Assembly (NCBI GenBank): GCA_027331445.1
Contig: DAHWUD010000004.1
Location: 1 to 55,468, forward strand
From: Candidatus Amesbacteria bacterium
GTDB lineage: Bacteria > Patescibacteriota > Microgenomatia > CAZETR01 > Amesbacteraceae
Length of the DNA stretch: 55,468 nucleotides
Reading direction: 5' to 3'
Positions 1-14,689 of this stretch are shown piece after piece. Position 1 is the first letter of the stretch, and each line of letters begins with the position of its first letter. The notes under the pieces are model-generated. The model searched no databases. It saw only the letters and a list, made by a program, of their open reading frames with translations, and was not told the origin of the DNA. The translations under genes and the position numbers were made by a program.

Positions 1-68
1 GCGAACTAAATAACCTGATAAATAATAACACAAGGGAGCTTCAGCAGATTGGCTTTCAACTTAATCAG

Positions 69-749: not shown

Positions 750-788
750 TACTTACCCCTCTTTATAGTATACCTATTTTTATTTTTG

Positions 789-859
789 AGCGGGTAAGGG
801 GAATCGGACCCCTGTATACAGTTTGGAAAACTGTCGCTCTGCCATTGAGCTATACCCGC
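789..859 (-). tRNA. tRNA-Gly (TCC)
   Basis: Reverse complement folds as a cloverleaf: acceptor GCGGGTA/TACCCGC, anticodon arm acagt-TTTCCAA-actgt. Confidence 0.93.
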
Positions 860-927
860 GAGCTTTGCGAGCGGGGATTAGGGCGCCAGCCCGCTTACCC
901 GCAAATCCTCATCTAAATTATATCAAG

Positions 928-999
928 TCGGGGAGGAGGGAATTGAACCCTCTACCTCTCGGTCCCAAACCGAGCGTTCTACCGATGAACTACACCCCG
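928..999 (-). tRNA. tRNA-Pro (TGG)
   Basis: Anticodon arm ctcgg-TTTGGGA-ccgag, GGTTCAATTCC T arm. Confidence 0.93.
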
Positions 1000-1085
1000 T
1001 CTATCCAATTATAGATGATCGCCCCCGGTTTGCCACCCAACCCCCGCTCATTCCTATTAACTTCACCCAAACATACTTTTAACTC

Positions 1086-1484
1086 TCACCGACCATTTTG
1101 GTTTTCCTTTACAATTGCTTCTCCGAACCTGGGACAATACGCATTTAATCCTTGAGTAAAATGGCATCCCCGGCATGCACTCGACCCCCCGCGGTCCACC
1201 AGCGGATTGAAAACCACATTATACTTCCCCCGGTCATGGTCCACACACTGCATTCTTTTAAGGGTATACCACACCACCATGTAAGATACATTGGCCCTGG
1301 CCCCCAGCTCTTTCGGCGAAAACTCCCCCTTAGTTTTAAAAACTTCATCCGCTATCGCATAAAACCCTAACTGACCTTCACGACCACCCATAGCCCCTTT
1401 TACCATAAACCCCCGCCTCCAGTCAACCCTAATTATCCTTGTGCCGATGGCGGGACTATTCTCGAACCTGCCCACCTGGTTCAA
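1086..1484 (-). CDS. Hypothetical protein (possible HTH plus C-terminal Cys cluster)
   Basis: 132-aa ORF; FSPKELGARANVSY..VWYTLKR is HTH-like; CRGC...C near the end; start uncertain. Confidence 0.4.
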   Translation of the reverse strand: MNQVGRFENSPAIGTRIIRVDWRRGFMVKGAMGGREGQLGFYAIADEVFKTKGEFSPKELGARANVSYMVVWYTLKRMQCVDHDRGKYNVVFNPLVDRGGSSACRGCHFTQGLNAYCPRFGEAIVKENQNGR

Positions 1485-1598
1485 AGATACAGTAGACGAA
1501 GCTAAATTGCTAAGATTTCAGCTTTCTCAGCTTAATTCGTTTTTAGCTTTAGTATATTAAAAAAGCTATCTCATCGACTCCGTCGGAGTTGTATTAAA

Positions 1599-2141
1599 TC
1601 AGGATCTGCGGTTTTTATCTCTCTGCTTTAACTTACATCCCAAATACCCTCCAACGGAGGTTTCCACCATAAGTAATGCCAGAGATGGAACGTTTTTAGG
1701 AATTGACCGAACGCTATCAAATAACTGCTGCGTACTTCTTGCCCTAGCCAGGCCAGCTGGATATCTTGGCCCATAAATTAGAGAAGTTGGCATCAGAATT
1801 ACAAACAAAAAGATCAACAATCTCAAAACAACTGATATGACAATCTCTGATACTCCTAGGCCCGCTCCGTAAAGATCCCCTTTTGTTCCAATTACAAAAC
1901 CAGTGACTCCTCCCGCAATCAATGAGGTTACAACTCCGATTAAACCTAAAAGTAAATAATAATTTGGGAACGGTTCCTGACTTATCCTAACCTTAAATTG
2001 TGTCACCGGCGTAATTCTCGCAAGTTCAGAAACAGCTCGAAAGGAAATGTACCTTGAAAGAATCCCTCCTGACAAGAGCACCATTAGACCAAGAAACATG
2101 CCAAATACTACTAACCGAAAATGGGGCCGCATCAACTTCAT
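1599..2141 (-). CDS. Hypothetical multi-pass membrane protein
   Basis: About four hydrophobic segments in 180 aa. Confidence 0.6.
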   Translation of the reverse strand: MKLMRPHFRLVVFGMFLGLMVLLSGGILSRYISFRAVSELARITPVTQFKVRISQEPFPNYYLLLGLIGVVTSLIAGGVTGFVIGTKGDLYGAGLGVSEIVISVVLRLLIFLFVILMPTSLIYGPRYPAGLARARSTQQLFDSVRSIPKNVPSLALLMVETSVGGYLGCKLKQRDKNRRS

Positions 2142-2188
2142 TATTTACTTCAGAAAATGTATTGTCAAAAAATTAGCGATTAGCGTAG

Positions 2189-3013
2189 CTACGAGTTAAG
2201 ATAACATTCAAGTTCTTTGTTGTTTACTGTATCATCGTAGCCCTGCTTTACCGTTGCCTTTAGCGCTTTTTGACTACTTTCTAGCATTGACGCCTTGGGT
2301 GTGGTCGCAGGAGTCATGAGAAACATTAATTCTTTATAATCAAAATTCCTTAACCGGTTAAGTTCTGAATCGTAGTTTCGCTTGAAAGTTTTACTCATAG
2401 TATTAACCCATTGGTTCATAGCTGCATCCACTACGGGAGATGAATGGGAGGTGTCAAAAGTAACTATTTTTTCAGCACCCAACTGAGTTGCCTTTTCTAC
2501 GTTTGCGGCAATATTAGCGGACAGTCTAGTATCACAGTAGCTCGACTCACCAATCTGAATTTTTCTGCCATAAACTAACGGCATCGCTTTAGATGCCCTC
2601 ATAGCTTCAAAGACATTCTTGCTTCGGTCTCTATTTGAAAAATATTCCAACATTCCAGTCGCAATATTTGTCATGGGAATTAAAAAATCGATACGGGATT
2701 CATAAACTTTATCAGTCTGTAGTTGATCCTGCTTTTTAAAAACATCATCTATGAGGTAGTCAATATCAATAACTTTCCAAAAACGCCAGTAAGAAATGAA
2801 TTTATGTGTCGCTAACAGATTTTCCCAGATATTTCGAATTGATTTATATTGGCCGGAAACATAGTAAGCCATTGTTCCTGCGCTTCCAGAGCCCCCTATA
2901 ACTACGTCAGGATTAGTTAGTTTGAACTTATCAACCAGTCCCAAGATGCATCCCGCAGTGTAGCTACAAGTCACACCACCCCCTGAGGCGACAACGGCTA
3001 GTTTTTCCGTCAT
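2189..3013 (-). CDS. Patatin-like phospholipase
   Basis: Gly-rich SGGG loop, GSGSAG nucleophile elbow, FEAMRASKAMP; start moved to ATG 3013 (MTEKLAV) because the longer ORF runs through tRNA-Leu. Confidence 0.85.
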   Translation of the reverse strand: MTEKLAVVASGGGVTCSYTAGCILGLVDKFKLTNPDVVIGGSGSAGTMAYYVSGQYKSIRNIWENLLATHKFISYWRFWKVIDIDYLIDDVFKKQDQLQTDKVYESRIDFLIPMTNIATGMLEYFSNRDRSKNVFEAMRASKAMPLVYGRKIQIGESSYCDTRLSANIAANVEKATQLGAEKIVTFDTSHSSPVVDAAMNQWVNTMSKTFKRNYDSELNRLRNFDYKELMFLMTPATTPKASMLESSQKALKATVKQGYDDTVNNKELECYLNS

Positions 3014-3087
3014 ACGGCCAATTTTACCAGTTTCGCACTTTTTTGTACTGAAACTACCTAAATTACCAATCGACACCATCCCCCTTG

Positions 3088-3170
3088 TGCCGAGGGCGGG
3101 ACTCGAACCCGCATGAACTTGCGCTCGAGGGCTCTTAAGGCCCTTGCGTATACCATTTCGCCACCTCGGC
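3088..3170 (-). tRNA. tRNA-Leu (TAA)
   Basis: agggc-CTTAAGA-gccct anticodon arm, long variable arm. Confidence 0.93.
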
Positions 3171-3181
3171 AGATTAAAAAG

Positions 3182-3265
3182 TGCCGGGAAGAGGACTTGA
3201 ACCTCCACGCCATTTCTGGCACACGTACCTCAAACGTGCCTGTATACCAATTTCAGCATCCCGGC
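3182..3265 (-). tRNA. tRNA-Leu (GAG)
   Basis: cacgt-TTGAGGT-acgtg anticodon arm, long variable arm. Confidence 0.93.
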
Positions 3266-3886
3266 TTACCTCTCCATTATATCTAATGCTTGCTCAATTT
3301 TGTATCTTTTCCGAGCTAAACATGAAACCTTACCATAATAAAGAACCTTATATAATTGACTTGATGCATGCTTCGCATACATTAAATGATATGCAGATCT
3401 TCCACTATACTTTATAGCCCCTTTAATTCCGTATAACTTCTCCACCATATTTTTAATCCAAACTAAATGATCCCTGCTTGCCGAGATAAAACCAATGTAT
3501 AGCATAAAACTCGACTTCACCTCTTATCCCAATATGAATAAGAAAACCCATCCCCGTCTGAGTGGCCTCTTAAAAAGTCAGCCAAATATCTCTCAGGAAC
3601 TTAAGATTGCACCAAGAGTTTTGGACTTGTGGGGATGAAGACCAATTTTTACTAAAAATCTATATAATTTGACATCTCCGAACTCAACCCGGAAATACGA
3701 TTCGGAAGCATTCTTCCTCCCACTAAACTTCAACCCTATTTTATTCTTGAGCCTTAAAATTCTTCTAAAGGTTTCCACTTGCTCAAGATTTTTTGATGTA
3801 AAGTCAATATGTCTCCCATCCTTTGACAAGCAACCATCAGTCGTGATTAAACCTAAGACATAACCCCTATTCTGCGACCAATATAT
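3266..3886 (-). pseudogene. Frameshifted double-motif LAGLIDADG homing endonuclease
   Basis: Motif 1 YVLGLITTDGC; motif 2 ADFLRGHSDGDG in another frame (3519-3600); third segment KSSFMLYIGFISAS; no in-frame canonical start. Confidence 0.8.
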
Positions 3887-3952
3887 GCATCATCAAGTAT
3901 ATAGCGGCTACCATAAACTTATCAGTATAACCATGCTAAAATAATCATATCC

Positions 3953-4035
3953 GGGCGGATGGTGAAATGGTATACACGCTAGCTTCAGGAGCTAGTGGTC
4001 GCAAGACCGTGGAGGTTCAACTCCTCTTCCGCCCA
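3953..4035 (+). tRNA. tRNA-Leu (CAG)
   Basis: ctagc-TTCAGGA-gctag anticodon arm, variable arm ggtc-gcaa-gacc. Confidence 0.93.
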
Positions 4036-4046
4036 CAAAAAAACGG

Positions 4047-4122
4047 GGTCGCTTAGCTCAGTTGGTAGAGCGCTTCATTTACACTGAAGATGTCGGGGGT
4101 TCAAGTCCCTCAGCGACCACCA
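4047..4122 (+). tRNA. tRNA-Val (TAC), encoded CCA
   Basis: cttca-TTTACAC-tgaag anticodon arm; acceptor GGTCGCT/AGCGACC-A-CCA. Confidence 0.95.
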
Positions 4123-4176
4123 GTCTGATAAAATATCCCTTGCCGAGAAAATTAGATCTCGGCACCGTTTCACTCT

Positions 4177-4218
4177 GCCGAGATAGCCAAGTTGGTCACG
4201 GCGGGCGCCTGAAGAGCG
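4177..4218 (+). repeat. attL: 5' half of tRNA-Phe (42-bp direct repeat with 14111-14152)
   Basis: gccgagatagccaag[t/g]tggtcacggcgg[g/a]cgcctgaagagcg, 40/42 identical; no proper T arm or acceptor 3' strand follows. Confidence 0.9.
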
Positions 4219-4305
4219 GAAAAACTCAGTTCGCTCCCTCTTAGGCAAAATTCAGCAGATTTTGGAAACTTATTAGCAAAAAATCCATCGGGTTAACGAC
4301 TGTCC

Positions 4306-5295
4306 ATGTCGTTATCTGATGTAACTTGGCCGGAGCTCCGGATATTCTTATTAAACGACCGGAAAATGTCGAACCGGGATTCTTCTGTCTACGCACTAAA
4401 AAGTAGGTTCAAAAAACTTTCCGAATACTTTAAGGAAACAGATTTTAACCGCATAACATTTACCAATTTTATAAGTTGGTTAAAAGACAAAAAGTACTCG
4501 GCGAGCTATATTAACAACTTTATAAAATTGGCCAAAAGTGTAGAACAATATTTACAGGTATTTAGGGGCAGAAGTAGAGAATTAGACGACTTTACATATT
4601 TCAGGGAAAACCGCCAATGGTTAGGAGAAACGCTAGGCCCGGAGGAGATTAAACAATTAGCTGAAGTTAATATCCCTTATGGAAAATTCAGTGAATACCT
4701 CAATAAAAGAAATGGTGTCCTGGTCATGCTTCTGGGGACCACTGGATGCCGTATTTCTGAAGCTTTAGACCTCACATTTCCAGATGTGAGAGGGGAACCC
4801 CCTTTTCTGGTCTTCAGAGATACCAAGAATGGTGACGACAGGGCCGTACCTATTACCAGAAGCCTGTACGAGGCGATTCTAGCCTTGCCCAGGCACGAGA
4901 GGTATACATTTGTATCCGCCCGGCATGGCCGTAGGTTAAACGTGCCTGAAATTAACTCCGACCTTAAAAAGCGCGCGTCTGCGTGTGGAATTAAAAAAAG
5001 GGTGTTCTGCCATCAATTCCGCCATAGCTACATATCAACCATGAGGGAGTGCGGCGTGGATGTCTTGGACATTGCCAAACTTGTTGGTCATCGAAATCTT
5101 GCTACCACTATGCGTTACAGTCACTCAAACATCGAATATTACGCAAATGTTATTCTGGCCCACCCACTCATTCATCAGGAAATGAGTTTACCTCAGAAGA
5201 TAAATAAAATAATTGATAAAGTCAGGAAAGAGGGAACTTTGATTTCCTCAAACCTTAACGGAAATGAACTATCCGTAACTATCCAGCTATCCTGA
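4306..5295 (+). CDS. Tyrosine integrase
   Basis: TGCRISEAL, TKNG, HQFRH, LVGH...TTMRY catalytic set; adjacent to attL. Confidence 0.93.
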   Translation: MSLSDVTWPELRIFLLNDRKMSNRDSSVYALKSRFKKLSEYFKETDFNRITFTNFISWLKDKKYSASYINNFIKLAKSVEQYLQVFRGRSRELDDFTYFRENRQWLGETLGPEEIKQLAEVNIPYGKFSEYLNKRNGVLVMLLGTTGCRISEALDLTFPDVRGEPPFLVFRDTKNGDDRAVPITRSLYEAILALPRHERYTFVSARHGRRLNVPEINSDLKKRASACGIKKRVFCHQFRHSYISTMRECGVDVLDIAKLVGHRNLATTMRYSHSNIEYYANVILAHPLIHQEMSLPQKINKIIDKVRKEGTLISSNLNGNELSVTIQLS

Positions 5296-6936
5296 TTACC
5301 TAAAAGCAATAGTCGAAGCGATGGTCTCTAACACAGGCACGTCAGTTCCTTGTCCCACTATGTCAATTAAATTTATGCCATTGCTGACCAAAATATCACT
5401 CACATTCGCCGGAGACGCTATTGCCACCTCCACCGCAATTTTATTACCCAATACTTTATCCTCAAATAATACCTGTTCCCCGCCGCCACCCGCTCCATAC
5501 CCAAAATGGTTTAGGTACCACAATTTCGCAGAGTCTCCTTTATCGTAGTCATCAGCCATAATTAAATCAGGACTGCTGTACGTATCGTTTCCCCTGTTAG
5601 TCTTCAGTTCTAATTGTATTTCCTTCGCACCTGACATAGTCGCATTAAAGATGTCGGCCGGATACTTAACACTGAAAAAACTATTATTAATACTTGCCCA
5701 GCCAAGGATCGGTAATAGTCTTGAATTAGTACCGGTATCTGGTACCAACGCCTCTCCAAAATTGAATGTGTTCAAAATTTGAGCAAATAACTGCTTCTTT
5801 TGCTGCAGGGCAACCTTGTCCCAAGCCGATAAAGTAATTTTATATAGTTTTTTATTCCTCAAGGCTAAAACTTCATCGTTATACACTCTGACATTACCCG
5901 CTACTGCTGAAAAGTCATAAGTTATTTCATATCCATTGAGGGTCGAGAATACGACTGCGTAAGCATTAGTATACCGATCCCGCACCGGTTCTGAATCTAA
6001 ATACTCATTCAGAGATTTCCAGTTTACATCCGGCTCAACACTTACGTTTAACCACACATCACCTTGACTTAAAAATTTGGGACCGTTACCGCCATTTCCA
6101 GCCGACGGTGCCAAATATATCCCTGCGTCAGATGTCCGTTGAAACTTAAAATAATCTTTAGAATAATTAAACGAAAACCCGTATTTATCATTTTTGTACA
6201 TTTCCAAGTTAGGTATCTCTGCCGCACCCCATATAAATTGAAAGGACGAAATTAGCTGGTTAAATAATTGTATCGAAGCAGCATTTGCATTGTCGCAATC
6301 AAATTCGATAAATTTAGCTGGGTTATTAGGTATCGGTATGAAAACCGATATCTGGTTATTTGCTGTAACCACGTAGTAATATTGTTTCAGGTTTGCACTT
6401 GATTTATTCTCAATACTTTTAATCGGTTGTGGAGGACAAACTCCCGCATTTGGATTACCTGTACAGTCTGTACCGGGCCCCTGTGCCCTTTGTATGGCCT
6501 CCTGCTGCGGCGTCAGCGTTGGATCTCGTGTCCAAACAATAATATTAAGATATGGAGAAGCACTACCTCCTTTTACGGAACCGCCGCCAACAACTTGGTC
6601 TGCAGATTCTTTATTAATCTGCCAGATTGGAGGGTAGTCAAACCGGTAGCCCCATTTTGAATCTGTATACGTTTTCCAATTTGCAGTCTGGTCAGAAGCG
6701 GGGATAAGAGTTGGAACGATAGGAGTCGGGGTTGTAGCTAATAAATTGGTGGGAAAGGATACACGCTTCTTTAAAAAAAGCCACCATCCACAAATTAATA
6801 TCAAAAAGAATCCTATCAGCAAAACCCACAACCATTTAGGATAATCTATTTTAGGTATGGTAATAACCATTTGTCGCGATGTTTGATCGGAAAGAGTTTC
6901 TGTAGGTGTGTCACCTATTTGCTGGTCAATTTTCAT
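5296..6936 (-). CDS. Single-TM surface protein with three PsbP/Mog1p-like repeats
   Basis: N-terminal TM, PT linker, repeats WKTYTDSKWGYRFDYP / MYKNDKYGFSFNYS / SINNSFFSVKYP, each ending in ..I.S(T)F.F-like segments. Confidence 0.7.
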   Translation of the reverse strand: MKIDQQIGDTPTETLSDQTSRQMVITIPKIDYPKWLWVLLIGFFLILICGWWLFLKKRVSFPTNLLATTPTPIVPTLIPASDQTANWKTYTDSKWGYRFDYPPIWQINKESADQVVGGGSVKGGSASPYLNIIVWTRDPTLTPQQEAIQRAQGPGTDCTGNPNAGVCPPQPIKSIENKSSANLKQYYYVVTANNQISVFIPIPNNPAKFIEFDCDNANAASIQLFNQLISSFQFIWGAAEIPNLEMYKNDKYGFSFNYSKDYFKFQRTSDAGIYLAPSAGNGGNGPKFLSQGDVWLNVSVEPDVNWKSLNEYLDSEPVRDRYTNAYAVVFSTLNGYEITYDFSAVAGNVRVYNDEVLALRNKKLYKITLSAWDKVALQQKKQLFAQILNTFNFGEALVPDTGTNSRLLPILGWASINNSFFSVKYPADIFNATMSGAKEIQLELKTNRGNDTYSSPDLIMADDYDKGDSAKLWYLNHFGYGAGGGGEQVLFEDKVLGNKIAVEVAIASPANVSDILVSNGINLIDIVGQGTDVPVLETIASTIAFR

Positions 6937-7844
6937 TGTTTTGAAATTTCACAGGCAACCTTAATTACCTCATTTGGGTGGTCAAATTTGACGGAATCAT
7001 TAATATGATGAAATGGGTCGCTGCTACTGATTACTATAATGCCGGCTTTGGTAACATAGGCATAATACCAGGGCCGTCCCGTACGGAAATCCGCAACTTG
7101 ATAATAGGGAAGATGTTGTAAAACAGTAAAGTTCTCGATCGGACAAAAAATCTCGTCAACTGGCTCACCAGGATCAGGTGAAACTATCCACTTATTATTA
7201 AATTTATCGTATTTAAGATTTTCAGAATAAGCTCCATTATTTAAACTTGAGGAAAAGTTTGCAGTGTCACTGGATACTGAAACCCAGTCCATGTCCGGAG
7301 ACAAGTCGTAATAATAATTAAAACTAAACCCAAATTGATCGTTACGGTATTGTTTTAATTCAAGTGTAGGATCAGGGCTGGATGCGGGAGGAGATATGAG
7401 ATTTTTGGGGGCTGGATTCGCATAGCCAGCAGCCCGCTCCTTAGCTAAACGGTCTTCAATGGCCTGTTTTTCAGGAGGTAATGAAGACAGACTATAAATC
7501 GGAGAAATAACGCTTAGCATCGAAGAAAAAATATTTAAAATTCCTAATAGTAAAATAACTATTAAGGTTATTGTTCCCAACTTAAACAACTTATTGCTTG
7601 GCGTTTTGCTAAAGGCCAGCTTCATTCCCAGAAATATTATCCCAGCCGAAACTATGGCTGCAACAACAACTAAATACGGGTAAATCCGGGTGAACAAGGG
7701 TAATTGTGCATTAAAATCCTGATATAAAGTATTCAGCTTAGGATAGACAAAAAATAACATAAGAATTTGTTGAATCAAACCGACCGAACCAAAAATCAAA
7801 TCTAACCACCCCACTACTTTATATTTCACAATTAAATAATACAC
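6933..7844 (-). CDS. Membrane protein: PilC/GspF-like TM bundle plus PsbP-like ectodomain
   Basis: LMLFFVYPKLNTLYQDFNAQLPLFTR and SVISPIYS match PilC in this window; LKQYRNDQFGFSFNY repeat start; real start may be GTG 7829. Confidence 0.7.
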   Translation of the reverse strand: MYYLIVKYKVVGWLDLIFGSVGLIQQILMLFFVYPKLNTLYQDFNAQLPLFTRIYPYLVVVAAIVSAGIIFLGMKLAFSKTPSNKLFKLGTITLIVILLLGILNIFSSMLSVISPIYSLSSLPPEKQAIEDRLAKERAAGYANPAPKNLISPPASSPDPTLELKQYRNDQFGFSFNYYYDLSPDMDWVSVSSDTANFSSSLNNGAYSENLKYDKFNNKWIVSPDPGEPVDEIFCPIENFTVLQHLPYYQVADFRTGRPWYYAYVTKAGIIVISSSDPFHHINDSVKFDHPNEVIKVACEISKQ

Positions 7845-7926
7845 CTCACTACTGACAATTTAGCAATGTTTGCGAAAAACATACCTTGACCAGCATAGTA
7901 ATAAGTTGTAATATGATGTTGAAACC

Positions 7927-8865
7927 ATGGCTAAGGTAAAGGATATAGTAACAGTCTCGGATCACAGCCAACCTCTACCGGGTTTTACACAGGCGAAAGC
8001 AAACGCACAGGCCATCTATGACAGTCTGGACGTATCAGAAAACACCCGACAGGACTATAAAACCCGCATTCAGTCGTTTTTGGAGTTTATAAAGGATCAG
8101 GAAGTTAACCATAATCTGTTCTTAGAGTACAAAAGATCTCTAGCCCAGCACTCTGACCTATCAGTTGCCACCAAAAACAAATATCTTGCGGCAGCCCGGA
8201 TATTCCTTAAAGAAGTTTGCCGCCGGGGAATGCTCCCAACGGATATCACCCAAAACATTAAGGGCTTTCGGCAAGATAAGAAGCACAAGCGGGACGGGCT
8301 GAACAATGACGAGATAATCACTTTGGTCGAAAAACTTAACTCACTTCCGCACACACCACGGACTGATCGTATAAAAGCGATAATCGTTCTGCTTACTCTA
8401 CAGGGACTTCGACAAGTGGAAATCATCCGTCTTAATATCAGCGACATCGACCTTGTGGGGAAACGGGCATTTATCCAAGGTAAAGGTCGGGATGACAAAG
8501 AACCAGTTGATCTGCATCCGGAAACGGTTCGGCTACTTAAAGAATATATGGGGTCAAATAATGTTAAAGACGGGGCTTTGTTTACTAGCCGCAGCAACAA
8601 CAGCCGGAACCTCCGGATAACTACCAGAAGCATTCGGAGTATTGCTAAGACGCTTCTAAACGATTTGGGGATAGATAAGACCGTACACGGCTTCAGGCAT
8701 TATTTCATAACCACCTTAGTAGACAAGTTTGGCGGGAATCTCCTAGACGTCGCCCAGTATTCCCGCCACCGCTCATTAGAGATGCTCCAGATATACTACG
8801 ATCGAGTGCGAAAACAGCATGATTTACCAAAGTATTACAAGGCGTTTGAAAAGGTAAGTTTTTGA
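7927..8865 (+). CDS. Second tyrosine recombinase
   Basis: QGLRQVEI, GKG, HGFRH, SRH...MLQIY; N-terminal SAM-like core-binding region (SENTRQDY). Confidence 0.92.
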   Translation: MAKVKDIVTVSDHSQPLPGFTQAKANAQAIYDSLDVSENTRQDYKTRIQSFLEFIKDQEVNHNLFLEYKRSLAQHSDLSVATKNKYLAAARIFLKEVCRRGMLPTDITQNIKGFRQDKKHKRDGLNNDEIITLVEKLNSLPHTPRTDRIKAIIVLLTLQGLRQVEIIRLNISDIDLVGKRAFIQGKGRDDKEPVDLHPETVRLLKEYMGSNNVKDGALFTSRSNNSRNLRITTRSIRSIAKTLLNDLGIDKTVHGFRHYFITTLVDKFGGNLLDVAQYSRHRSLEMLQIYYDRVRKQHDLPKYYKAFEKVSF

Positions 8866-8932
8866 TTACTTTTGGCCTTGTACTTCCGATAATCCTAATT
8901 ACAGGAAGTAGAAAATATTAATTTATAAAACA

Positions 8933-9364
8933 ATGAAAAAACTAATCACAACAACGAAAGCAAGTTTTTTAATTGTGGGTGTTGTGGTGGGTCTGGTATC
9001 AATGTATTTTTATCTACAACCTAAACTAAGCTATGAGCAAGCCCAAACCGTTTACTGGAAATACACGGCTAGTTTAAAACAAACAGTTGTTGATCAAAAA
9101 CAAGGGGAAATTCAAATATATAAAAATCAATTAGCTTCTACCGATGCCCAACTTGCCTCCGCAAGTGCACAAATAAAAACACTTTCAAACAGACCACCCG
9201 AGGTTATATATAAAACACAATACGTTCAACAGTCGACACAAGATAATACCTACGACCCAACAAACTGCTATCCCGACCAACTTGGAGGACAATATTGTCG
9301 TTCTCTAAGTGGAAAACAAACGCATTGTGTTTCTAATTTGATAGGTGGAATGATTTGTAATTAA
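8933..9364 (+). CDS. Membrane-anchored coiled-coil protein with Cys-rich tail
   Basis: N-terminal TM, Q/A heptads, twin C..(L/I)GG..C repeats. Confidence 0.6.
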   Translation: MKKLITTTKASFLIVGVVVGLVSMYFYLQPKLSYEQAQTVYWKYTASLKQTVVDQKQGEIQIYKNQLASTDAQLASASAQIKTLSNRPPEVIYKTQYVQQSTQDNTYDPTNCYPDQLGGQYCRSLSGKQTHCVSNLIGGMICN

Positions 9365-9374
9365 GCAAGTAAAC

Positions 9375-9569
9375 ATGACAGACAGCAATAACAACACTTA
9401 CTACACCACTAAAGAAGTGGCAAAAATACTTAAAGTCCATACCGAAAGCGTCCGGCGCTGGATCCGCCAGGGCGATTTAAAAGCCGTTAAGTTGGGCGGT
9501 AAGTACATCCGGGTTAGCAATAATGACTTACAGGACTTCGTCTACCGTCAACGCTCCATAAGCGGGTGA
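9375..9569 (+). CDS. Excisionase-type HTH DNA-binding protein
   Basis: YYTTKEVAKILKVHTESVRRWIRQGDLKAVKLGG. Confidence 0.88.
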   Translation: MTDSNNNTYYTTKEVAKILKVHTESVRRWIRQGDLKAVKLGGKYIRVSNNDLQDFVYRQRSISG

Positions 9570-10090
9570 AGTCAAAATATATGGCAAAGTATGACTGGCC
9601 TAGGCTTAAACAAGAATTTATTGAAGGTAGCTGGCTAACAATTACCAGTTTCCTGAGAAGTAAGAATATCAAATCCAATTCAAGGACTCGGTCTCAGTCG
9701 AAAGGCTGGCAAGAGGCAAGAGGTGAATATCTGAAGGAAATTGTCACCCAAACCCGGCAGCAGGCGTTACAAGGCGAAGTTGAAATCCGCCTCAGACAAC
9801 AGGAGGAAGCCAAACTCATGCAAACTAAAGGTATGGAAAGCTTAAATATGTTGGATGTAACAACAGCTGACGAGGCTAGAAAGCTAATCACGGCTGGACT
9901 TGAACAGGAACGACGGGCTATGGGCCTGGAAGGGAATTTCCGGCCGTCCAAGCTAACCCAAGTTAACGTTGCGGTAGGACCCAAAACGAAATTTGATTCC
10001 ATGATTGAAAACCTCAGTTATGAAGAGCTCTTACACTTTATTGCCGAAATAAGAAAAGAAAAGGAAATAAGAAAGCAACGCTCCGGATAA
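9566..10090 (+). CDS. Putative terminase small subunit-like protein
   Basis: N-terminal YDW..LK.EF HTH-like start, W...R helical middle, GLEQERRAMG, C-terminal LSYEEL; resembles phage TerS architecture. Confidence 0.45.
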   Translation: MKSKYMAKYDWPRLKQEFIEGSWLTITSFLRSKNIKSNSRTRSQSKGWQEARGEYLKEIVTQTRQQALQGEVEIRLRQQEEAKLMQTKGMESLNMLDVTTADEARKLITAGLEQERRAMGLEGNFRPSKLTQVNVAVGPKTKFDSMIENLSYEELLHFIAEIRKEKEIRKQRSG

Positions 10091-10290
10091 ATTAGTGACA
10101 AAACAGTGACAGACTTGCGCTTTCAGTTAGCTTAATATTAACTAACTTAGCCTCAACTGTAACTAAAAAAGCATAGGCAGCTCTCAGTCAGCCTACCCCC
10201 CAGGCCTAAAAATCTGAGCCACCACCTTTTTTAGCCATACGGATGGCACCTCAACAACTAACAGATTTTTTTCCAAAAACCGGCCAAGTA

Positions 10291-10836
10291 TTACTGAACC
10301 ACTTGGCACTGGCTCATATCTATAACTCCAATGGTCTGGGAACCAATTACGCCTCTGACGGTAATTGTCTGGCCATTTTTTAAAGACATAAGTTGATTTT
10401 TGTCATCCACCCGACAGCTGATTTGTGTCATGGAAAACTCCTTTGACGCAACATTAGTAAATGAAATCCCGGAATCAGTGATGTTTGCTACTTTAGCCGA
10501 GAATTCTACCAATTTATCTTTCCATTTACTTTCTGCGGCGACTTGATTACTGTCAAAATCGTCAGCCAATTGCTGGGCTGTAATTTTTTGAGCTGTAATG
10601 GGAGTAGGTGAAGCAACACTTTGGGTTTGAGCCTGGCCCGTTGTTTGGCTGCTGCTAGAACTGTTTTTGCTCCCTCCGGCGGCTCCGACAATCCCTATAA
10701 CCACCAAAATTATCAGACCAGTCAATATAGGATGTCTGGCAAACCAAATTCGTTGGTCGGCCTGGCAGTGCGGGCACTTCTTAGCTTTGGGGTCAATTTC
10801 CATTTGGCAACTTTTGCACTTCTTCATAAATTTCAC
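10291..10836 (-). CDS. Zinc-ribbon + TM + extracytoplasmic OB-fold protein
   Basis: CKSC..CPHC, TM, S/T linker, ITAQQLADDFDSNQVAAESKWKDK...GQTITVRG (tRNA_anti-like OB fold). Confidence 0.75.
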   Translation of the reverse strand: MKFMKKCKSCQMEIDPKAKKCPHCQADQRIWFARHPILTGLIILVVIGIVGAAGGSKNSSSSSQTTGQAQTQSVASPTPITAQKITAQQLADDFDSNQVAAESKWKDKLVEFSAKVANITDSGISFTNVASKEFSMTQISCRVDDKNQLMSLKNGQTITVRGVIGSQTIGVIDMSQCQVVQ

Positions 10837-10947
10837 CTCCCTTCACATAGGGTCAAATACATTAATAGCCTGATTATAGTCACAATAATAGATAAATGCA
10901 CTCAGTGGTGTGCACATATTCATCACGATTTGGGCAAAAATCACCTC

Positions 10948-11166
10948 ATGTTGGCTAAACAAAGGTATTTAGCGGCTTTGGGAGAGAAAGTTAAAAAATC
11001 CCGCTTAGACGCCGGGATGCAAAAACTATCTGACGTCACAGCCAAAACAGGGCTGCACCGGAATTTTCTTAGTAAGATCGAGGACGGCAAAACCAACCCG
11101 TCCGCATATACTCTATACAAACTTGCTTCAGCTATCGGAGATAAAACCCTGGACCCCGCATCTTAG
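10948..11166 (+). CDS. XRE-family HTH regulator
   Basis: LGEKVKKSR...TGLHRNFLSKIEDGKTNPSAYTLYKLA; start moved to ATG 10948. Confidence 0.85.
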   Translation: MLAKQRYLAALGEKVKKSRLDAGMQKLSDVTAKTGLHRNFLSKIEDGKTNPSAYTLYKLASAIGDKTLDPAS

Positions 11167-11259
11167 CTTAGTCATCAAACCTGATTCTTACATCAATATT
11201 AGAATCAATATGTTGTGAGACTAACAATGTATATTGACCCATGTTATGCGATAAATAGA

Positions 11260-11288
11260 TTGACAAGGCACTAGTTCTAGACTAACAT
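11260..11288 (+). promoter_or_regulatory. Sigma70-type promoter for the replication operon
   Basis: TTGACA-17 nt-TAACAT. Confidence 0.55.
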
Positions 11289-11323
11289 AACTTTAATCTA
11301 ATAGAGCAAAATAAAATACTTTT

Positions 11324-11356
11324 TGCTGGAGGGAACTTTCCCCCCAGCATTTTTTT
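11324..11356 (+). terminator. Intrinsic terminator-like hairpin upstream of the replication genes
   Basis: tgctggaggga/tccccccagca stem followed by T7. Confidence 0.6.
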
Positions 11357-11392
11357 GCCCTGATCGGGTAAACCCAAGAAAGAAGAGACAGA

Positions 11393-11575
11393 ATGGATAA
11401 AAACACTATACCACTTATAGAAGTAAAGGAAGGGACTTTCGTCCCGGTTTCAATTGCACAGAGATGTCCAGTGTGTAACGGGTTTGGAACACTAAAATAC
11501 GGAGCGTTGATATGTCAGGGATGCAAGGGGAAGGGCTACGTATTAGTACCAACTAAGGAGGTTAAAAATGGCTAG
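11393..11575 (+). CDS. Small DnaJ-type zinc-finger protein
   Basis: CPVCNGFG and CQGCKGKG. Confidence 0.7.
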   Translation: MDKNTIPLIEVKEGTFVPVSIAQRCPVCNGFGTLKYGALICQGCKGKGYVLVPTKEVKNG

Positions 11576-12098
11576 GAAACGAATGATAGATCCCAGCATT
11601 TGGGCCGATGAGGACTTCGGCAAACTCTCTTCTGACGCAAAAGTGATGTTTATAGGTTTATTCTCAAATGCAGACGATGCGGGAGTGCTGCCGGGAGATC
11701 CTACCTATTTGAGTGCAACAATTTTTCCTTTTAACGGTTTATCGCCAAAAAAGGCTTCGAAAATTTGTAAGGAAATAGAGACAAAAATGAAGTCGGTGTT
11801 CTTTTATTCTGATAATTGCAAGAAATATATTAAACTCAAAAAATTTCTTGTTTACCAAAAAATTAACAGGCCTTCTCCTAGTAAATATCCCCAACCTCCA
11901 AAAGATAATTCACCTCACGAAGAATTCTATGAGGAATCAATGACTAATCATGGAAACGTCACACCCAATAGAAATGAAAAGAATATACAAGAAGAAAACC
12001 AAACTAATTTTTCTTCTGAGGAAGAATCGTTTAGAGACCAAGCATGGTCTGCCGCCGTCGAGGCGTCCGCTGCTGCCAAAAAAGGAGGCGGGTTATGA
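11568..12098 (+). CDS. Phage-type replication initiator (N-terminal wHTH)
   Basis: MARKRMIDPSIWADEDF..LS..AK..FIGLFSNADDAG...YQKINRPSPSKYP; AAGGAGG RBS. Confidence 0.75.
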   Translation: MARKRMIDPSIWADEDFGKLSSDAKVMFIGLFSNADDAGVLPGDPTYLSATIFPFNGLSPKKASKICKEIETKMKSVFFYSDNCKKYIKLKKFLVYQKINRPSPSKYPQPPKDNSPHEEFYEESMTNHGNVTPNRNEKNIQEENQTNFSSEEESFRDQAWSAAVEASAAAKKGGGL

Positions 12099-13768
12099 CC
12101 TTCGAAGAACTGAAAGCCAAGAATTCGATCGTTGATGTGGCAGTCCGGCTTGGATTAGTCCGAACCGCTAAAGAAACCACACAAAATTTTAAGTGTTTTT
12201 ACCATGAAGATCGTCACCCATCATGTGTTCTCATGCCCAGTGTCAACCGATACAAATGTCAAAGCTGCGGCAAGGGGGGAGATGTCATTGATTTAGTACA
12301 AAATCAGTGCGGTCTAAACTCACCCTTTGAAGCAGCAAAATGGCTAGACCCCACATTTGGAGAAGATGATTGGGAAAACGAAACTCCAAGCTCCTGGGAC
12401 AAGGCTCATCCTTTTTCTGAGGAGGTTAAAAAACAATACAAATATGAAATCGGAGAAGATGAAATCAGATTTGAAATACCTGGATATGGAACAAAAATAC
12501 GGTACTTTGGAAAAAAACGTAAAGAGAATGGTAAATATTGCAACCCAATAGGATCAGCGGAAAACTTTGTCTTTATTACATGTCCTGAACAACAAATCCA
12601 GTTTGTAGTTGAAGGAGAAGCCGACGCTTTAGTTTTGACGAGCCAAACAGGATACTCTGCCGCAACCAAAACCACAGGAGTGGGTTCAGCAATAGGATTA
12701 GTAGAAAGATTAGTAGGCAAAGATATATATATCGTTACAGACAACGACCGACCGGGGAAAAAATATGCAGAAGAAATAATAACCGCTATTCCATCAGCCA
12801 AGCTCGTCACTCTTCCGACTGGAGTTAAAGATATTTCTGAGTACTTCTTCAGAAATTACAGCGATGACGATTTTGACAAACTAGTTCTCTCAGCCACACA
12901 ACCGGAACCGCCGGAACTTGTAGTAGCAACAGGATATAAGTCTCTTGATAAAGTATTGTGTGGTTTCCATTCTGGAGGATTAGGATTATTTGCCGGAGAA
13001 GAAAAGTCGGGGAAAACTTCATTTGTTTTGAGCTTAGCTGCACATCTCGTTGAGTTAGGTTACAAAGTTGTCTACGTAAGCACTGAATTAACCCGTTATG
13101 AAGTCGATCGCTATCTGGACACTCTAACCGGCGAAAATAATTGGAGCCAAAAGCATCCAGATTTTGAGTTTTATGATCTGGAAAAATTACCGACTCTAGA
13201 AGATCATCTAAAACTCGTGCAGGACAAGGCTATGTTTGGAATCAGGGTATTCATAATCGATAACATCACTAGTTATAGAGATGAAATCGTACTTGGAAAA
13301 ACCGAATGGGAACGTATTGCTATTGCTGGAGACAAGTATCGCAGATTAGCTAAAAAGTACGGTTTAATTATGATCGCTGTGATACACCTTAACCGTGGCA
13401 CAACCTTACGTGAAATTCCTTTAAAAGTTAAACAGATGATTAAGGAGAATGTACCTGATCAAATATTTGACGAAAGCATATCTGTTTTTCGGCGACCTGA
13501 CGTCGAAGATATTAAGGGTGGTTCAGGAATGCGGTCGCAGACTATTTTTCAACTTTTGCTATGGAGACCATACCAATCATTTAACTTACCAAAATTAAAC
13601 AAGCTCTGCGCAGTGATTGTAGCCAATAACCGTTATGGCCCAACCGGGGATGTACTCTTCAACTTCGATGGTGCAACTAAGAAGTTTACTGAAGTTGAAA
13701 TTGAAGTTTCTACAGAAAAGAGCAATGAACCGTACCAAGAAAATATTTCCGATGTAGAACAAATATGA
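12095..13768 (+). CDS. Fused primase-helicase (CHC2 zinc finger, TOPRIM, SF4 helicase)
   Basis: CFYH..CQSC; VVEGEAD and DND; GEEKSGKT, FIIDNI, HLNR, DIKGGSG, NRYG; AGGAGG before ATG 12095. Confidence 0.9.
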   Translation: MTFEELKAKNSIVDVAVRLGLVRTAKETTQNFKCFYHEDRHPSCVLMPSVNRYKCQSCGKGGDVIDLVQNQCGLNSPFEAAKWLDPTFGEDDWENETPSSWDKAHPFSEEVKKQYKYEIGEDEIRFEIPGYGTKIRYFGKKRKENGKYCNPIGSAENFVFITCPEQQIQFVVEGEADALVLTSQTGYSAATKTTGVGSAIGLVERLVGKDIYIVTDNDRPGKKYAEEIITAIPSAKLVTLPTGVKDISEYFFRNYSDDDFDKLVLSATQPEPPELVVATGYKSLDKVLCGFHSGGLGLFAGEEKSGKTSFVLSLAAHLVELGYKVVYVSTELTRYEVDRYLDTLTGENNWSQKHPDFEFYDLEKLPTLEDHLKLVQDKAMFGIRVFIIDNITSYRDEIVLGKTEWERIAIAGDKYRRLAKKYGLIMIAVIHLNRGTTLREIPLKVKQMIKENVPDQIFDESISVFRRPDVEDIKGGSGMRSQTIFQLLLWRPYQSFNLPKLNKLCAVIVANNRYGPTGDVLFNFDGATKKFTEVEIEVSTEKSNEPYQENISDVEQI

Positions 13769-14058
13769 AAACCTTGTTTATTAAAACAAATAACATAAAT
13801 CTTTTAAGACAATTTGAATGTTTCGGAATCCCTGTGATGAAAGAAAACGATCAGGCGGTTGGGTTTTTACCTCCAAGCTTTTTTGCGGAAGTTAACAACC
13901 AGCATTTAGTCTGCCGACGGCTTAAAAAATGGGCTAAAAATATTGATCCCTATGTAGTACTCACGTTGGGACAGTGGCAACCAATCAACATATTTTGGGA
14001 TAAAACAACCCCTTCGACACTATTAAGCAATTTAATCAAAATATATGACAGTCCATAA
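13765..14058 (+). CDS. Hypothetical protein, last gene of the element
   Basis: ATGA overlap with the helicase stop codon. Confidence 0.55.
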   Translation: MKTLFIKTNNINLLRQFECFGIPVMKENDQAVGFLPPSFFAEVNNQHLVCRRLKKWAKNIDPYVVLTLGQWQPINIFWDKTTPSTLLSNLIKIYDSP

Positions 14059-14071
14059 TTGTCTTTTATTT

Positions 14072-14080
14072 TGTTATAAT
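14072..14080 (+). promoter_or_regulatory. Extended -10 promoter, on the element, for the restored tRNA-Phe
   Basis: TGTTATAAT 30 nt upstream of the tRNA. Confidence 0.6.
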
Positions 14081-14110
14081 TTGCACCAGTTACCCAATGG
14101 CCAAAATCTT

Positions 14111-14183
14111 GCCGAGATAGCCAAGGTGGTCACGGCGGACGCCTGAAGAGCGTCAAATATAGGTTCGATTCCTATTCTCGGCA
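14111..14183 (+). tRNA. tRNA-Phe (GAA), contains attR
   Basis: GCCGAGA/TCTCGGC acceptor, gacgc-CTGAAGA-gcgtc, GGTTCGATTCC. Confidence 0.95.
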
Positions 14184-14233
14184 CAAGATAAGCCTATAGT
14201 TGATTTTGTGGAATAATACTGTAGAATCGGAAT

Positions 14234-14572
14234 ATGAGAGAAAAAGGAATATCGTTTAATGAAAATTTTTATCAAGGCTTTCCGATTGTGAACGTAGAAA
14301 GTCCATCCTCTGAAGTTAGGAAATTGTATAAACTGATAAAAAGCAAAAAGGCTGAATTCTCGGATCTATACAGCGAACTGTTTAATAACGATTTTGAAAT
14401 TGATGGATTCAATATAGACAGATGCAGTGCAAAACTTCGGAGAAAAATTATTCATCGCGATAAAAAAGGTAAACCGCTTGAATTCGACGGATATTACATA
14501 GTACAAGCTTTAGACGGGGGAAATTTAAAATTACTGGTGAATGGTAATAAAGTACATATCAAGCGACAGTAG
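14234..14572 (+). CDS. Hypothetical protein in a small AT-rich islet
   Basis: 112-aa ORF with TAGAAT 6 nt before the ATG. Confidence 0.6.
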   Translation: MREKGISFNENFYQGFPIVNVESPSSEVRKLYKLIKSKKAEFSDLYSELFNNDFEIDGFNIDRCSAKLRRKIIHRDKKGKPLEFDGYYIVQALDGGNLKLLVNGNKVHIKRQ

Positions 14573-14653
14573 AAAACAAGTTTTGAAATTTTTGAAGTTG
14601 AATAGCAAGTAACTCAGCCTTATCGTTCTCCATCAAAAAATATTCTTTAAACC

Positions 14654-14689
14654 TCAAAATAAGTTCGATTCCAGACCTATTCTCGGCAC
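14654..14689 (+). repeat. Degenerate copy of the tRNA-Phe 3' end (att remnant)
   Basis: tcaaaataagttcgattccagacctattctcggcac vs tRNA tcaaatataggttcgattcctattctcggcac. Confidence 0.75.

Follow-up and report, generated by a model that had tools for sequence, protein, structure and literature searches.

A probable composite integrative island with satellite-like cargo at the 5′ end of the sole tRNA-Phe gene of a Candidatus Amesbacteria genome

Introduction

Genomic islands are usually mapped via displaced 3′ ends of tRNA genes, and the mobile elements of Patescibacteria are, to our knowledge, poorly known. Here, we analyse a stretch of 55,468 nucleotides from Candidatus Amesbacteria bacterium (assembly GCA_027331445.1, contig DAHWUD010000004.1), hereafter the window, which is the entire contig C44 of a 925,058-base assembly (59 contigs, 51.3% GC) labelled G000. 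Between positions 4192 and 14125, the window appears to contain a composite integrative island that adjoins the start of tRNA-Phe, a gene present once in the genome. An earlier note, made from the letters of the window, had described the region as one satellite-like element that splits tRNA-Phe at the anticodon and supplies it with a new 5′ half and promoter.

The closest described counterparts are the islands compiled in Islander (Hudson, Lau and Williams 2015, PMC4383910), where integration displaces a fragment of the tRNA gene (tDNA) to one side and a 5′ fragment upstream of the tDNA is accepted; of the 3919 islands, 3760 have a 3′ fragment and 159 (~4%) a 5′ fragment. The locus in the window has the corresponding properties: an intact tRNA gene and a co-oriented cognate end fragment bound the island, the 5′ fragment lies 9.9 kb upstream, which is an allowed configuration, a tyrosine integrase is encoded inside (two PF00589 matches), the length of 9.93 kb falls within 2–200 kb, and the occurrence is sporadic, with tRNA-Val and tRNA-Phe adjacent in relatives G016 and G009 and with a sequencing depth of 34 against 98–114 in the flanks, from which an empty allele is predicted. 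The geometry that the earlier note had called reversed does displace a 5′ fragment, but with 159 of 3919 islands it is a documented minority and not the reversal of an absolute rule. Like the 5′-fragment islands of that paper, the locus unites a tyrosine integrase island, an upstream 5′ fragment and a gene regenerated by element sequence. It differs in that the site classes used there are anticodon-centred or T-stem for all islands, whereas the evidence from the window favours exchange in the first 16 nt, and in that the fragment is trailed by tRNA vestiges and resides in a reduced-genome host with a single tRNA-Phe. No paper on promoter donation by 5′-fragment islands turned up in the literature searched, which does not establish its absence.

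Replacement of the start of a gene, rather than of its end, by element sequence also occurs in the dusA-specific integrase islands, which insert at the 5′ end of the host gene (Farrugia et al. 2015, PMC4482086). As described there, the dusA target is protein-coding and found in Proteobacteria, whereas the target in the window is a tRNA gene and the replacement would include a promoter and an RNase P leader. Two islands at tRNA-Lys genes, in genomes G367 and G383, belong to the same integrase group (35–39% identity to the first integrase of the window, int1), and their int likewise lies downstream of the attachment site (att) and co-oriented with it. In these islands, the intact tRNA-Lys stands beside int and the far copy is a 72-nt repeat minus nt 1–4, such that a near-whole gene is carried, whereas the element in the window carries a promoter and the first bases instead.

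Phage-inducible chromosomal islands (PICIs) encode an integrase, an excisionase, a Cro/CI-type regulator, a replication initiator, a primase-helicase and a phage-related small terminase subunit (TerS), with no large terminase subunit (TerL), portal, capsid, tail or lysis genes. Judged by its genes, part of the island in the window carries the gene set of PICIs such as the Staphylococcus aureus pathogenicity islands (SaPIs). This module differs from PICIs in that terS appears to be co-transcribed with the excisionase gene xis, rather than lying in a late packaging operon, in that it has no capsid-remodelling genes, and in that it is embedded in, or joined to, an island with a second integrase. 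A limited literature search turned up no report of a Patescibacteria satellite, although this does not demonstrate that none exists.

Results

The island is flanked by copies of the 5′ part of tRNA-Phe

Throughout, coordinates are those of the window, features lie on its forward strand unless the reverse strand is named, G numbers denote sampled genomes and L numbers fetched loci or contigs; the family set comprises 27 genomes and the class set 401. ARAGORN finds 43 tRNA genes on the 59 contigs of the G000 assembly, with tRNA-Phe in single copy. Within the window, tRNA-Leu(cag) (3953–4036) and tRNA-Val(tac) (4047–4122) form the host flank (3953–4122), which is followed directly by tRNA-Phe in the empty site of relatives, whereas the tRNA-Phe(gaa) of the window is located at 14111–14184; all three are on the forward strand and are recognized by Rfam (55.9, 72.7 and 64.4 bits, respectively).

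The left direct repeat (attL, 4176–4218) corresponds to positions −1 to 42 of tRNA-Phe and is identical at 41 of 43 positions to the right direct repeat (14110–14152), which lies within the sole functional tRNA-Phe (14110–14184 with the preceding base; ARAGORN, Rfam). The earlier note had reported 40 of 42 identical positions across tRNA nt 1–42, a count that holds, and BLAST against the 925-kb assembly gives the repeat an E of 2e-13. The two mismatches, T/G at 4192/14126 and G/A at 4204/14138, leave exact blocks of 16, 11 and 14 nt, the last of which spans the anticodon loop, in keeping with the assignment of the final identical run to the anticodon arm. The left copy is identical over 43 of 43 positions to the tRNA-Phe of relatives G009 and G010, and A27 of the working tRNA-Phe is unique among the six tRNA-Phe sequences compared.

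No tRNA is called at 4177 by ARAGORN, nor by Rfam at E≤1. Past 4218, likeness to tRNA-Phe fades until 4242 (67 nt at 84% overall, with ~15 of the final 24 positions matching), and the decayed tRNA-like remainder (4219–4245), a putative element-side attP sequence, retains a T-loop-like GTTCG and a terminal GGCA. The claim that the left copy has no 3′ half thus stands as far as folding goes, with no tRNA call and an anticodon stem and T arm unable to pair, but not as regards these weak vestiges. The GGCA(A/T)A junction of the remainder is common to two related islands, L112 and G195, described below. From its sequence, the left copy resembles a pseudo-tRNA, once of full length and now decayed, that is borne on the attachment site of the element.

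Relatives have the empty site and the island is polymorphic

The Val-Phe locus was annotated in four genomes of the family. In G016, the tRNA order is Gly, Pro, Leu, Leu, Leu(cag), Val(tac), Phe, as in the window, with a Val-Phe spacer of 23 nt, and in G009 the distance from tRNA-Val to tRNA-Phe is 4 nt; read from these sequences, the adjacent arrangement is the empty site. In G010, a 924-nt insert separates tRNA-Val from tRNA-Phe, and in G004, the closest relative, the locus contains island remnants and is broken across contig ends. Had the relatives kept both tRNA-Phe copies, the insertion proposed in the earlier note would have failed; instead, relatives such as G016 and G009 have adjacent Val-Phe genes and a single tRNA-Phe. 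No family genome besides G000 has a partial second copy of tRNA-Phe (21 of the 27 genomes with a match). Across the class set, a pattern scan for the 5′ part of tRNA-Phe gives at least one match in 206 of 401 genomes and at least two in eight, among them G203 and G240 with contig-end overlaps, G296 with three full genes, G004 with two full genes on different contigs, G101 and G225 with two different sequences, and G270.

X1, the one public run that contains the window stretch, is probably its source sample. Among its assembled Logan contigs, a single unbranched contig covers 4162–14139 (9.98 kb) with zero differences at a depth of 34.4, whereas the flanking contigs have depths of 98, 101, 100.3 (4073–4191) and 113.7 (14110 onward), and the contigs join via 30-nt overlaps exactly at 4162–4191 and 14110–14139. 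The depth of 34 within the island, compared with 98–114 in the flanks, indicates that the insert is real and polymorphic, being borne by roughly one third of the genomes having these flanks. Since the junction k-mers carry unique flank sequence, the junctions are not an artefact of binning or scaffolding, which disposes of the assembly chimera that the earlier note had named as a refuting outcome. The drop in depth from 100 to 34 past 4191 implies that a second path exits there, and the rise from 34 to 114 that it enters at 14110; the sole sequence that would fit both steps consists of the left spacer, the shared 16 nt and the right copy from 14126. Of the read-level signs that the earlier note had proposed, the empty junction is thus predicted, but no circular junction is present among the X1 contigs and the depth of the island is lower, not raised: the X1 data reveal polymorphism, not ongoing excision. 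Runs X2 and X3 contain almost no island sequence.

Two further joints in X1, 4120→14109 (depth 22.6, side 29) and 4120→4180 (depth 26.2, side 25, with 19 further letters intervening), have a short side and a likeness of 90 and were not used as evidence; they most likely stem from other populations with tRNA-Val followed by tRNA-Phe. We also note that in G004 (contigs C19, of 632 nt, C38 and C43; L021–L023), two different full tRNA-Phe genes are present on separate contigs and the locus ends at contig ends on either side of an island with an int1 remnant and a PsbP-like gene, which points to polymorphism or a mixed population; the 632-nt contig (partial tRNA-Val, then tRNA-Phe) may come from another organism.

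The GC content is 0.37–0.46 over 4000–14400, compared with 0.54–0.58 rightward and 0.513 genome-wide. The left flank (1–4000) is GC-poor too (0.34–0.48, compared with 0.51), and it contains a patatin-like gene (2189–3208) amid six tRNA genes; this tRNA cluster may carry further foreign DNA. That the host was read as a member of the candidate phyla radiation agrees with the small size of its genome and with the names of its closest protein relatives (Patescibacteria, Microgenomates, Gottesmanbacteria).

Islands of the int1 group recur at tRNA-Phe

The first integrase gene, int1 (4306–5295, 329 aa; PF00589 E=2.2e-23, PHROG integrase E=2e-32), starts 183 nt downstream of tRNA-Val and is co-oriented with it. 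Residues R149, K174, H236, R239, H262 and Y271 of int1 are invariant in the homologue alignment A2. At E≤1e-20, 13 of the 401 class genomes have a homologue; G000 is one of them, and the remaining 26 genomes of the family have none. In G195 (int 43% identical), tRNA-Val is followed by a 10-nt stub, int, an Mrr nuclease, DUF4145, an HNH nuclease, TTGTTATAAT and tRNA-Phe, and on metagenome contigs L115–L117 (int 28%), by a stub and int, with small genes (4.9 kb, DUF2321 among them) filling the interval up to tRNA-Phe. In L112, a 48-nt 5′ fragment of tRNA-Phe precedes an int that is 76% identical to int1. G004 has int1 fragments directly past tRNA-Val, a deformylase-like gene (assigned by eye) and a PsbP-like gene, with no match to the second integrase of the window, int2. 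The 5′-half tRNA repeats that the earlier note had suggested looking for beside integrase homologues are thus seen in L112 (48 nt), but are reduced to stubs of 10–13 nt in G195 and L116, and G367 has a near-whole tRNA-Lys repeat.

The only full-length match to the PsbP-like protein in the family is that of G004 (73% amino acid identity), where the gene lies beside the int1 remnant; at the nucleotide level, the G000 and G004 genes are 81.5% identical, compared with 64% for the core flank, which indicates horizontal spread of the island and not shared descent. The part of the island with int1 recurs without the satellite-like module and the locus contains two integrases, at odds with the single simple element of the earlier note. 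Moreover, int2 homologues never lie beside tRNA-Phe and no att repeats were found for them, which makes int1 the integrase tied to the tRNA-Phe boundaries. The tRNA-Phe and tRNA-Lys islands are alike in that int is located just downstream of the tRNA-derived att sequence and co-oriented with it. A scan of genome contigs with int1 gave 25 loci, none above 35% identity and none informative on the att site. In G010, the insert (L024 11681–12604) contains one 192-aa open reading frame (ORF) without known family and closes with TGCTATAAT-N30, the arrangement described for the promoter below. Its leader is similar to the one in G004, and the insert may be what is left of the right end of an int1-type island.

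The crossover may map to the 5′ end of tRNA-Phe

The two copies of the repeat share just 16 exact bases, fewer than k−1, and the repeat alone therefore cannot break the assembly graph. The breakpoints of the X1 graph, 4191|4192 and 14109|14110, coincide with the ends of the first 16-nt identical block. The tRNA-Phe of the empty site is predicted to carry G17 and A27 of the right copy; if this is right, exchange took place within tRNA positions −1 to 15, and in that case nt 17–42 of the left copy and the decayed remainder would be element DNA, that is, a pseudo-tRNA on attP.

The related islands were compared over the same region. In G195, the stub between tRNA-Val and int matches the tRNA-Phe of that genome over 10 nt (positions −1 to 9) and then continues with GGCA, in L116 the stub is exact over 13 nt (positions −3 to 10) with weaker likeness to ~nt 24, and in L112 the fragment reaches nt 48 and is again followed by GGCA. 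In the classical tRNA-Lys island of G367, the 72-nt repeat begins at nt 5, without nt 1–4. The fragment lengths therefore vary across related islands (10, 13–24, 43 and 48 nt), the extreme 5′ end alone being constant, and the tRNA-derived blocks intersect at ~nt 5–9. An attachment site in the anticodon loop, where the earlier note had placed the split, would fit the end of identity at nt 41, but sits less well with the graph breakpoints and with the 10–13-nt stubs. This comparison tips the balance slightly towards a crossover in the 5′ end (first 16 nt) of tRNA-Phe, rather than in the anticodon loop.

The island appears to donate a promoter to tRNA-Phe

An extended −10 box, TGTTATAAT (14072–14080), lies on the element side of the junction, 30 nt upstream of tRNA-Phe, where the earlier note had seen it. 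A two-hexamer promoter scan, with counts near the expectation from shuffled sequence, does not list TGTTATAAT because its −35 element is poor. TGYTATAAT is present 26–31 nt upstream of tRNA-Phe in all four loci with inserted DNA (G000, G004 contig C38, G010 and G195), and L116 has TGTTATAGT 11 nt upstream of tRNA-Phe, whereas the empty-site spacers of 23 nt and 4 nt are too short for such a box. Together, the box in all four insert loci and the lack of room in the empty sites make donation of a promoter to tRNA-Phe by the element, as the earlier note had proposed, well supported by comparison. Placement of int1 behind the host Leu-Val tRNA promoter is plausible, and read-through from a host tRNA promoter into int is possible in the tRNA-Phe and tRNA-Lys islands alike, the layout being a family trait.

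Relics of older insertions

A hairpin at 4141–4166, composed of the first 8 and the last 9–10 nt of tRNA-Phe with a perfect 7-bp stem, lies 10 nt upstream of the 5′ fragment. It falls within the Logan contig 4073–4191 (depth 100) and is thus present in both alleles. L112 (~640–715) has two hairpins with the same GAGATAC core and position. Such hairpins may have been left behind by earlier attL pseudo-tRNAs, or they may serve as signals for binding or processing. On the other side, the remnant of an older classical insertion (14185–14689, ~0.5 kb, at full depth in X1) consists of one 112-aa ORF without known family (14234–14572) and a 3′ fragment of tRNA-Phe (14664–14689), which extends from the T loop to the acceptor end with a 4-nt insertion and includes a 14-nt exact match (14676–14689). 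The presence of tRNA-Phe relics on both flanks indicates that the gene has been struck more than once, and from either end.

The island carries a satellite-like module with a second integrase

Between the repeats lie 13 genes, among them two intact tyrosine integrase genes (Pfam, PHROGs). Downstream of int1, two cargo genes form an operon on the reverse strand: a 546-aa PsbP_2-like protein (5296–6936; PF18933 E=1.9e-8) and a 303-aa protein (6933–7844) with a weak RDD-family match (PF06271 E=0.0053, under the Pfam cut-off). The satellite-like module opens with int2 (7927–8865, 312 aa, with an N-terminal SAM-like domain; PF00589 E=6.5e-22), followed by a 143-aa ORF (o143, 8933–9364) with no Pfam or PHROG family (top ESM Atlas score 0.83), a 64-aa excisionase-type HTH_17 protein, Xis (9375–9569; PF12728 E=5.2e-15 and PHROG excisionase families), and the 174-aa TerS homologue (9566–10090), assigned from gene order in viral loci and an AlphaFold2 (AF2) model; the stop codon of Xis overlaps the start of TerS. 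On the reverse strand, a zinc-ribbon/tRNA_anti-like OB protein (10291–10836; PF12869 E=5.3e-14, phrog_8545 E=7.3e-15) resembles phage superinfection exclusion (Sie) proteins. The module continues with an XRE/Cro-type HTH regulator (10948–11166, ~72 aa from the first ATG past the divergent gene; PF01381 E=1.7e-7), a 60-aa zinc-finger protein (11393–11575) with a weak DnaJ_CXXCXGXG match, whose homologue adjoins TerS in G064 and in the G367 island, a replication-initiator-like protein (11568–12098; phrog_1408 E=1.5e-19, phrog_2149 E=3e-18) corresponding to the N-terminal half of phage initiator families, a primase-helicase (12044–13768) with CHC2 zinc finger, Toprim and DnaB-like ATPase (DnaB_C, Zn_ribbon_DnaG, Toprim_2; phrog_239 E=3.2e-36), and a 97-aa ORF (o97, 13765–14058) with no family found in Pfam or PHROGs, which is the last gene before the promoter. 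The genes listed in the earlier note are all present, but one of the two integrases and the PsbP_2-like and RDD-like genes had been overlooked.

No capsid, portal, TerL, tail, lysis or conjugation family is found among the ORFs scanned (14 with Pfam, 10 with PHROGs), as the earlier note had stated, a result limited by three ORFs of the island without assignable function. TerL and portal have no match anywhere in the 925-kb G000 assembly, and neither the Pfam and PHROG scans nor that search found structural remnants next to TerS. By gene content, the module thus combines int2, Xis, XRE, a replication module and TerS with no TerL, portal, capsid, tail or lysis genes, TerS being assigned here on gene order.

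All eight IMG/VR loci place the TerS homologue (36–45% identity) immediately 5′ of genes for a TerL of the GpA type and a portal, which bears out the TerS-like gene of the earlier note. In the AF2 model (pLDDT 78), a bundle of three helices at the N terminus leads into a long helix. By position and predicted shape, the 174-aa ORF is a small terminase subunit. A large protein collection contains 13 homologues, mostly from short contigs and Microgenomates or Gottesmanbacteria records. ESM Atlas returned viral hypothetical clusters and Terminase_5 clusters at 0.93 for TerS, which we treated as a lead and not as evidence. In two of the IMG/VR loci (L086 and L089), the portal gene 3′ of TerL seems interrupted or extended, with two portal matches ~1 kb apart and ORFs of 929–955 aa; an inserted domain or an intein-like element is possible.

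A TerS homologue is found in six of the 401 class genomes, G000 included, and neither TerL nor portal has a match within the fetched ±10 kb, or up to the contig end, at any of the six TerS loci of the five other genomes. The TerS gene of G064 shares its locus, next to tRNA-Leu, with genes for a zinc-finger protein, a helicase of the DnaB-like type and a large serine recombinase, and in G148 TerS lies near a serine recombinase. In the window, TerS overlaps xis and lies between integration and immunity genes, flanked by Xis and the Sie-like gene. This placement is unlike that expected of a truncated prophage and supports the satellite idea at the level of gene content. The module is therefore best described as a candidate phage satellite in Patescibacteria, which would be the first for the phylum; the PICI-like nature proposed by the earlier note is supported on gene content, but as part of a composite with the int1 island. 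A single-protein scan found no relatives of the primase-helicase in IMG/VR. Homologues of int2 with 50–61% identity are present in seven other genomes, with tRNA-Phe or a fragment of it at none of the seven loci, and the upstream regions of int2 and its homologues have no common motif by eye. The int2 module may represent nested cargo, a tandem neighbour minus its inner site, or a partner of int1.

Several further observations concern the regulation and distribution of such modules. A near-consensus sigma-70-type promoter (TTGACC, 17 nt, TAATAT), seen by eye at 7888–7916 just 5′ of int2, suggests that int2 is under its own promoter. A 16-nt motif resembling ATTTRGCAAYKTTTGC (81–88% alike) occurs three times, at 7858–7873 in the int2 promoter region, at 10802–10817 at the start of the Sie-like gene and near the divergent XRE promoter, and at 13544–13559; the copies could be operator or iteron sites, or chance. 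In two genomes, TerS islands adjoin the ychF GTPase gene (L102 of G148, 6384–8895; L103 of G045 contig C8, 323–2292), with the large serine recombinase adjacent to the TerS island in G148, and ychF may be a second favoured insertion site of the satellite-like group.

Discussion

We interpret the region 4192–14125, ~9.93 kb give or take the 16-nt repeat, as a composite integrative island of the int1 group with PICI-like cargo at the 5′ end of the sole tRNA-Phe gene, a reading to which we assign a probability of roughly 0.72 on the sequence evidence. Direct observations comprise the repeat, the gene content, the empty site of relatives, the synteny of TerS, the finding of further int1 islands at this site and the reduced depth of the island contig, from which the exact crossover, the use of the promoter, the division of labour between the integrases and the satellite behaviour are deduced. 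Ancestrally, tRNA-Phe would have followed directly after tRNA-Val, and the island would have inserted at its 5′ end. The int1-type attachment site would begin with an extended −10 promoter and its leader, continue with the initial bases of tRNA-Phe and a decaying tRNA-Phe-like remainder, and lead into the integrase gene. Recombination with the host gene, most likely inside tRNA nt 1–16 and perhaps at nt 5–9, would yield a left product in which the old upstream region of the host and the first bases are fused to the pseudo-tRNA and int1, and a right product in which the promoter, leader and first bases of the element are fused to the host tRNA body. The sole tRNA-Phe would thereby stay functional, although now transcribed from element DNA. 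The cargo would consist of the PsbP-like/RDD-like pair and the PICI-like module with its own integrase, int2; this module probably replicates once excised and would be packaged by the TerL and capsid of a helper phage.

A number of observations weigh against this interpretation or parts of it. The empty allele is deduced from contig ends and contig-level depths, and X1, as the probable source of the window, is probably not independent; the circular attP junction was not seen in the X1 Logan contigs, with no sign of ongoing excision. Identity between the copies drops sharply past the anticodon loop (nt 41), as a crossover in that loop would give, the short stubs of G195 and L116 could be the product of later decay, and A27 fits an element-borne 5′ half as well as it fits a lineage-specific change; the left copy equals the tRNA-Phe of G009 and G010. 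A tree of 10 integrase rows lacks resolution at the backbone and does not demonstrate the tRNA-Phe users as a clade, and promoter activity is read from the comparison of loci. Comparison of the 700 nt upstream of int2 and its seven homologues with downstream DNA gave no att repeats, only matches of 10–17 nt at chance level. TerS has no Pfam match at E≤1, a best E of 0.036 against PHROGs for 12 family members, a best E of 0.1 (galactokinase) in a profile search of the PDB, and a best E of 1.5 with Foldseek against the PDB; no named phage matches TerS by tblastn, and no helper phage is known.

Four other explanations deserve consideration. If exchange instead occurred in the anticodon loop, mirroring the classical tDNA site there, the left copy would be the displaced 5′ half of the host gene and nt 1 to ~38 of the working tRNA would come from the element. 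The block of identity does end in the 3′ strand of the anticodon stem (4218), the expected end of such a site, the left copy matches G009 and G010 at 43 of 43 positions while A27 of the right copy occurs in none of the five other sequences, and the Islander paper classes all islands as anticodon-centred or T-stem sites (PMC4383910). However, the X1 breakpoints (4191|4192 and 14109|14110) are not near 4218 or 14152, with the island contig unbroken through 4218, and under this scenario the majority 'empty' allele would have to have arisen later by deletion through the 16-nt microhomology, an extra event not due to an integrase that reached about two thirds of the population while the ancestral T17/G27 empty allele went missing. 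Nor does it fit the varying fragment lengths with a constant extreme 5′ end, or the tRNA 3′-end vestiges after the left copy, which are expected if the whole pseudo-tRNA is element DNA; we therefore hold exchange in the anticodon loop to be rather unlikely. Least credible of all, and in our view very improbable, is an assembly artefact or a local tRNA duplication without a mobile element: the genome is a metagenome assembly in 59 contigs and tRNA genes are common to co-occurring populations, but the independent X1 assembly reproduces both junctions with k-mers that carry unique flank sequence, integrases and a lower-GC block lie between the repeats, and unrelated assemblies have the same architecture.

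The remaining two explanations concern the composition of the island. The locus could harbour two independent neighbours, an int1 island (4219 to ~7850) and an int2 satellite (~7850 to 14070) placed by its own integrase at its own short site within or next to the first, which travel together by accident. Two intact integrases, the occurrence of int1 with the PsbP-like gene in G004 in the absence of an int2 match, the lack of tRNA-Phe at all seven loci with int2 homologues, and the use of other recombinases by TerS modules elsewhere are all in line with such an arrangement, whereas no repeat marks an inner boundary near 7845–7926 or 14059–14071, and X1 has a single unbranched contig of 9.98 kb at one depth, with no sub-population detected that has one part only. 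We regard two independent neighbours as a serious contender that falls short of even odds. By comparison, it appears improbable that the module from int2 to the primase-helicase is what is left of a temperate phage after loss of TerL, portal, head, tail and lysis genes. Homologues of TerS do lie within complete packaging modules in all eight viral loci, prophages commonly carry integrase, Xis, XRE, Sie-like and replication genes, and neither a helper phage nor a packaged form was found; however, a truncated prophage would hold TerS past the replication genes at the edge of the deletion, rather than overlapping Xis, no reading frame in the module is interrupted, and polymorphism of the island persists. 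Moreover, TerS occurs without TerL and portal at six of six loci in five other genomes, at least two of them in small islands with other recombinases, and this recurrence speaks for a stable gene set and not for random decay.

Returning to the composite island with a crossover at the 5′ end of tRNA-Phe, a wider, tentative generalization can be formulated, although we consider it doubtful as a whole: int1-type integrases of Patescibacteria would exchange at ~nt 5–9, the junction of acceptor stem and D arm, as a fourth sublocation within tDNA in addition to the 3′ end and to the loops of the anticodon and T arms. Two modes of gene rescue would then exist, namely carriage of a near-whole tRNA, as in G367 (72 nt of tRNA-Lys), or of no more than the promoter, leader and first bases, for which the tRNA-Phe islands stand, and decaying attL pseudo-tRNAs would be fossils of a switch from the first mode to the second. 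Within this same generalization, the island would serve as a satellite vehicle, its type in the window carrying the first phage satellite seen in the phylum, and the sole tRNA-Phe of the cell would depend on the promoter of the element.

Current models of island integration are not overturned by these findings. Rather, the locus illustrates the minority case cleanly and in a polymorphic state, with the start and promoter of a single-copy essential tRNA gene apparently replaced, and it is noteworthy for a possibly new 5′-proximal crossover site common to an integrase group and for a TerS-bearing satellite candidate, whose likely helpers would be phages with a homologous TerS, a GpA-type TerL and a portal. 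The set of related islands (G000, L112, G195, L116 and the tRNA-Lys relatives) is tractable for asking where these integrases cut, and it may show how an attachment site switches from 3′ to 5′ gene restoration.

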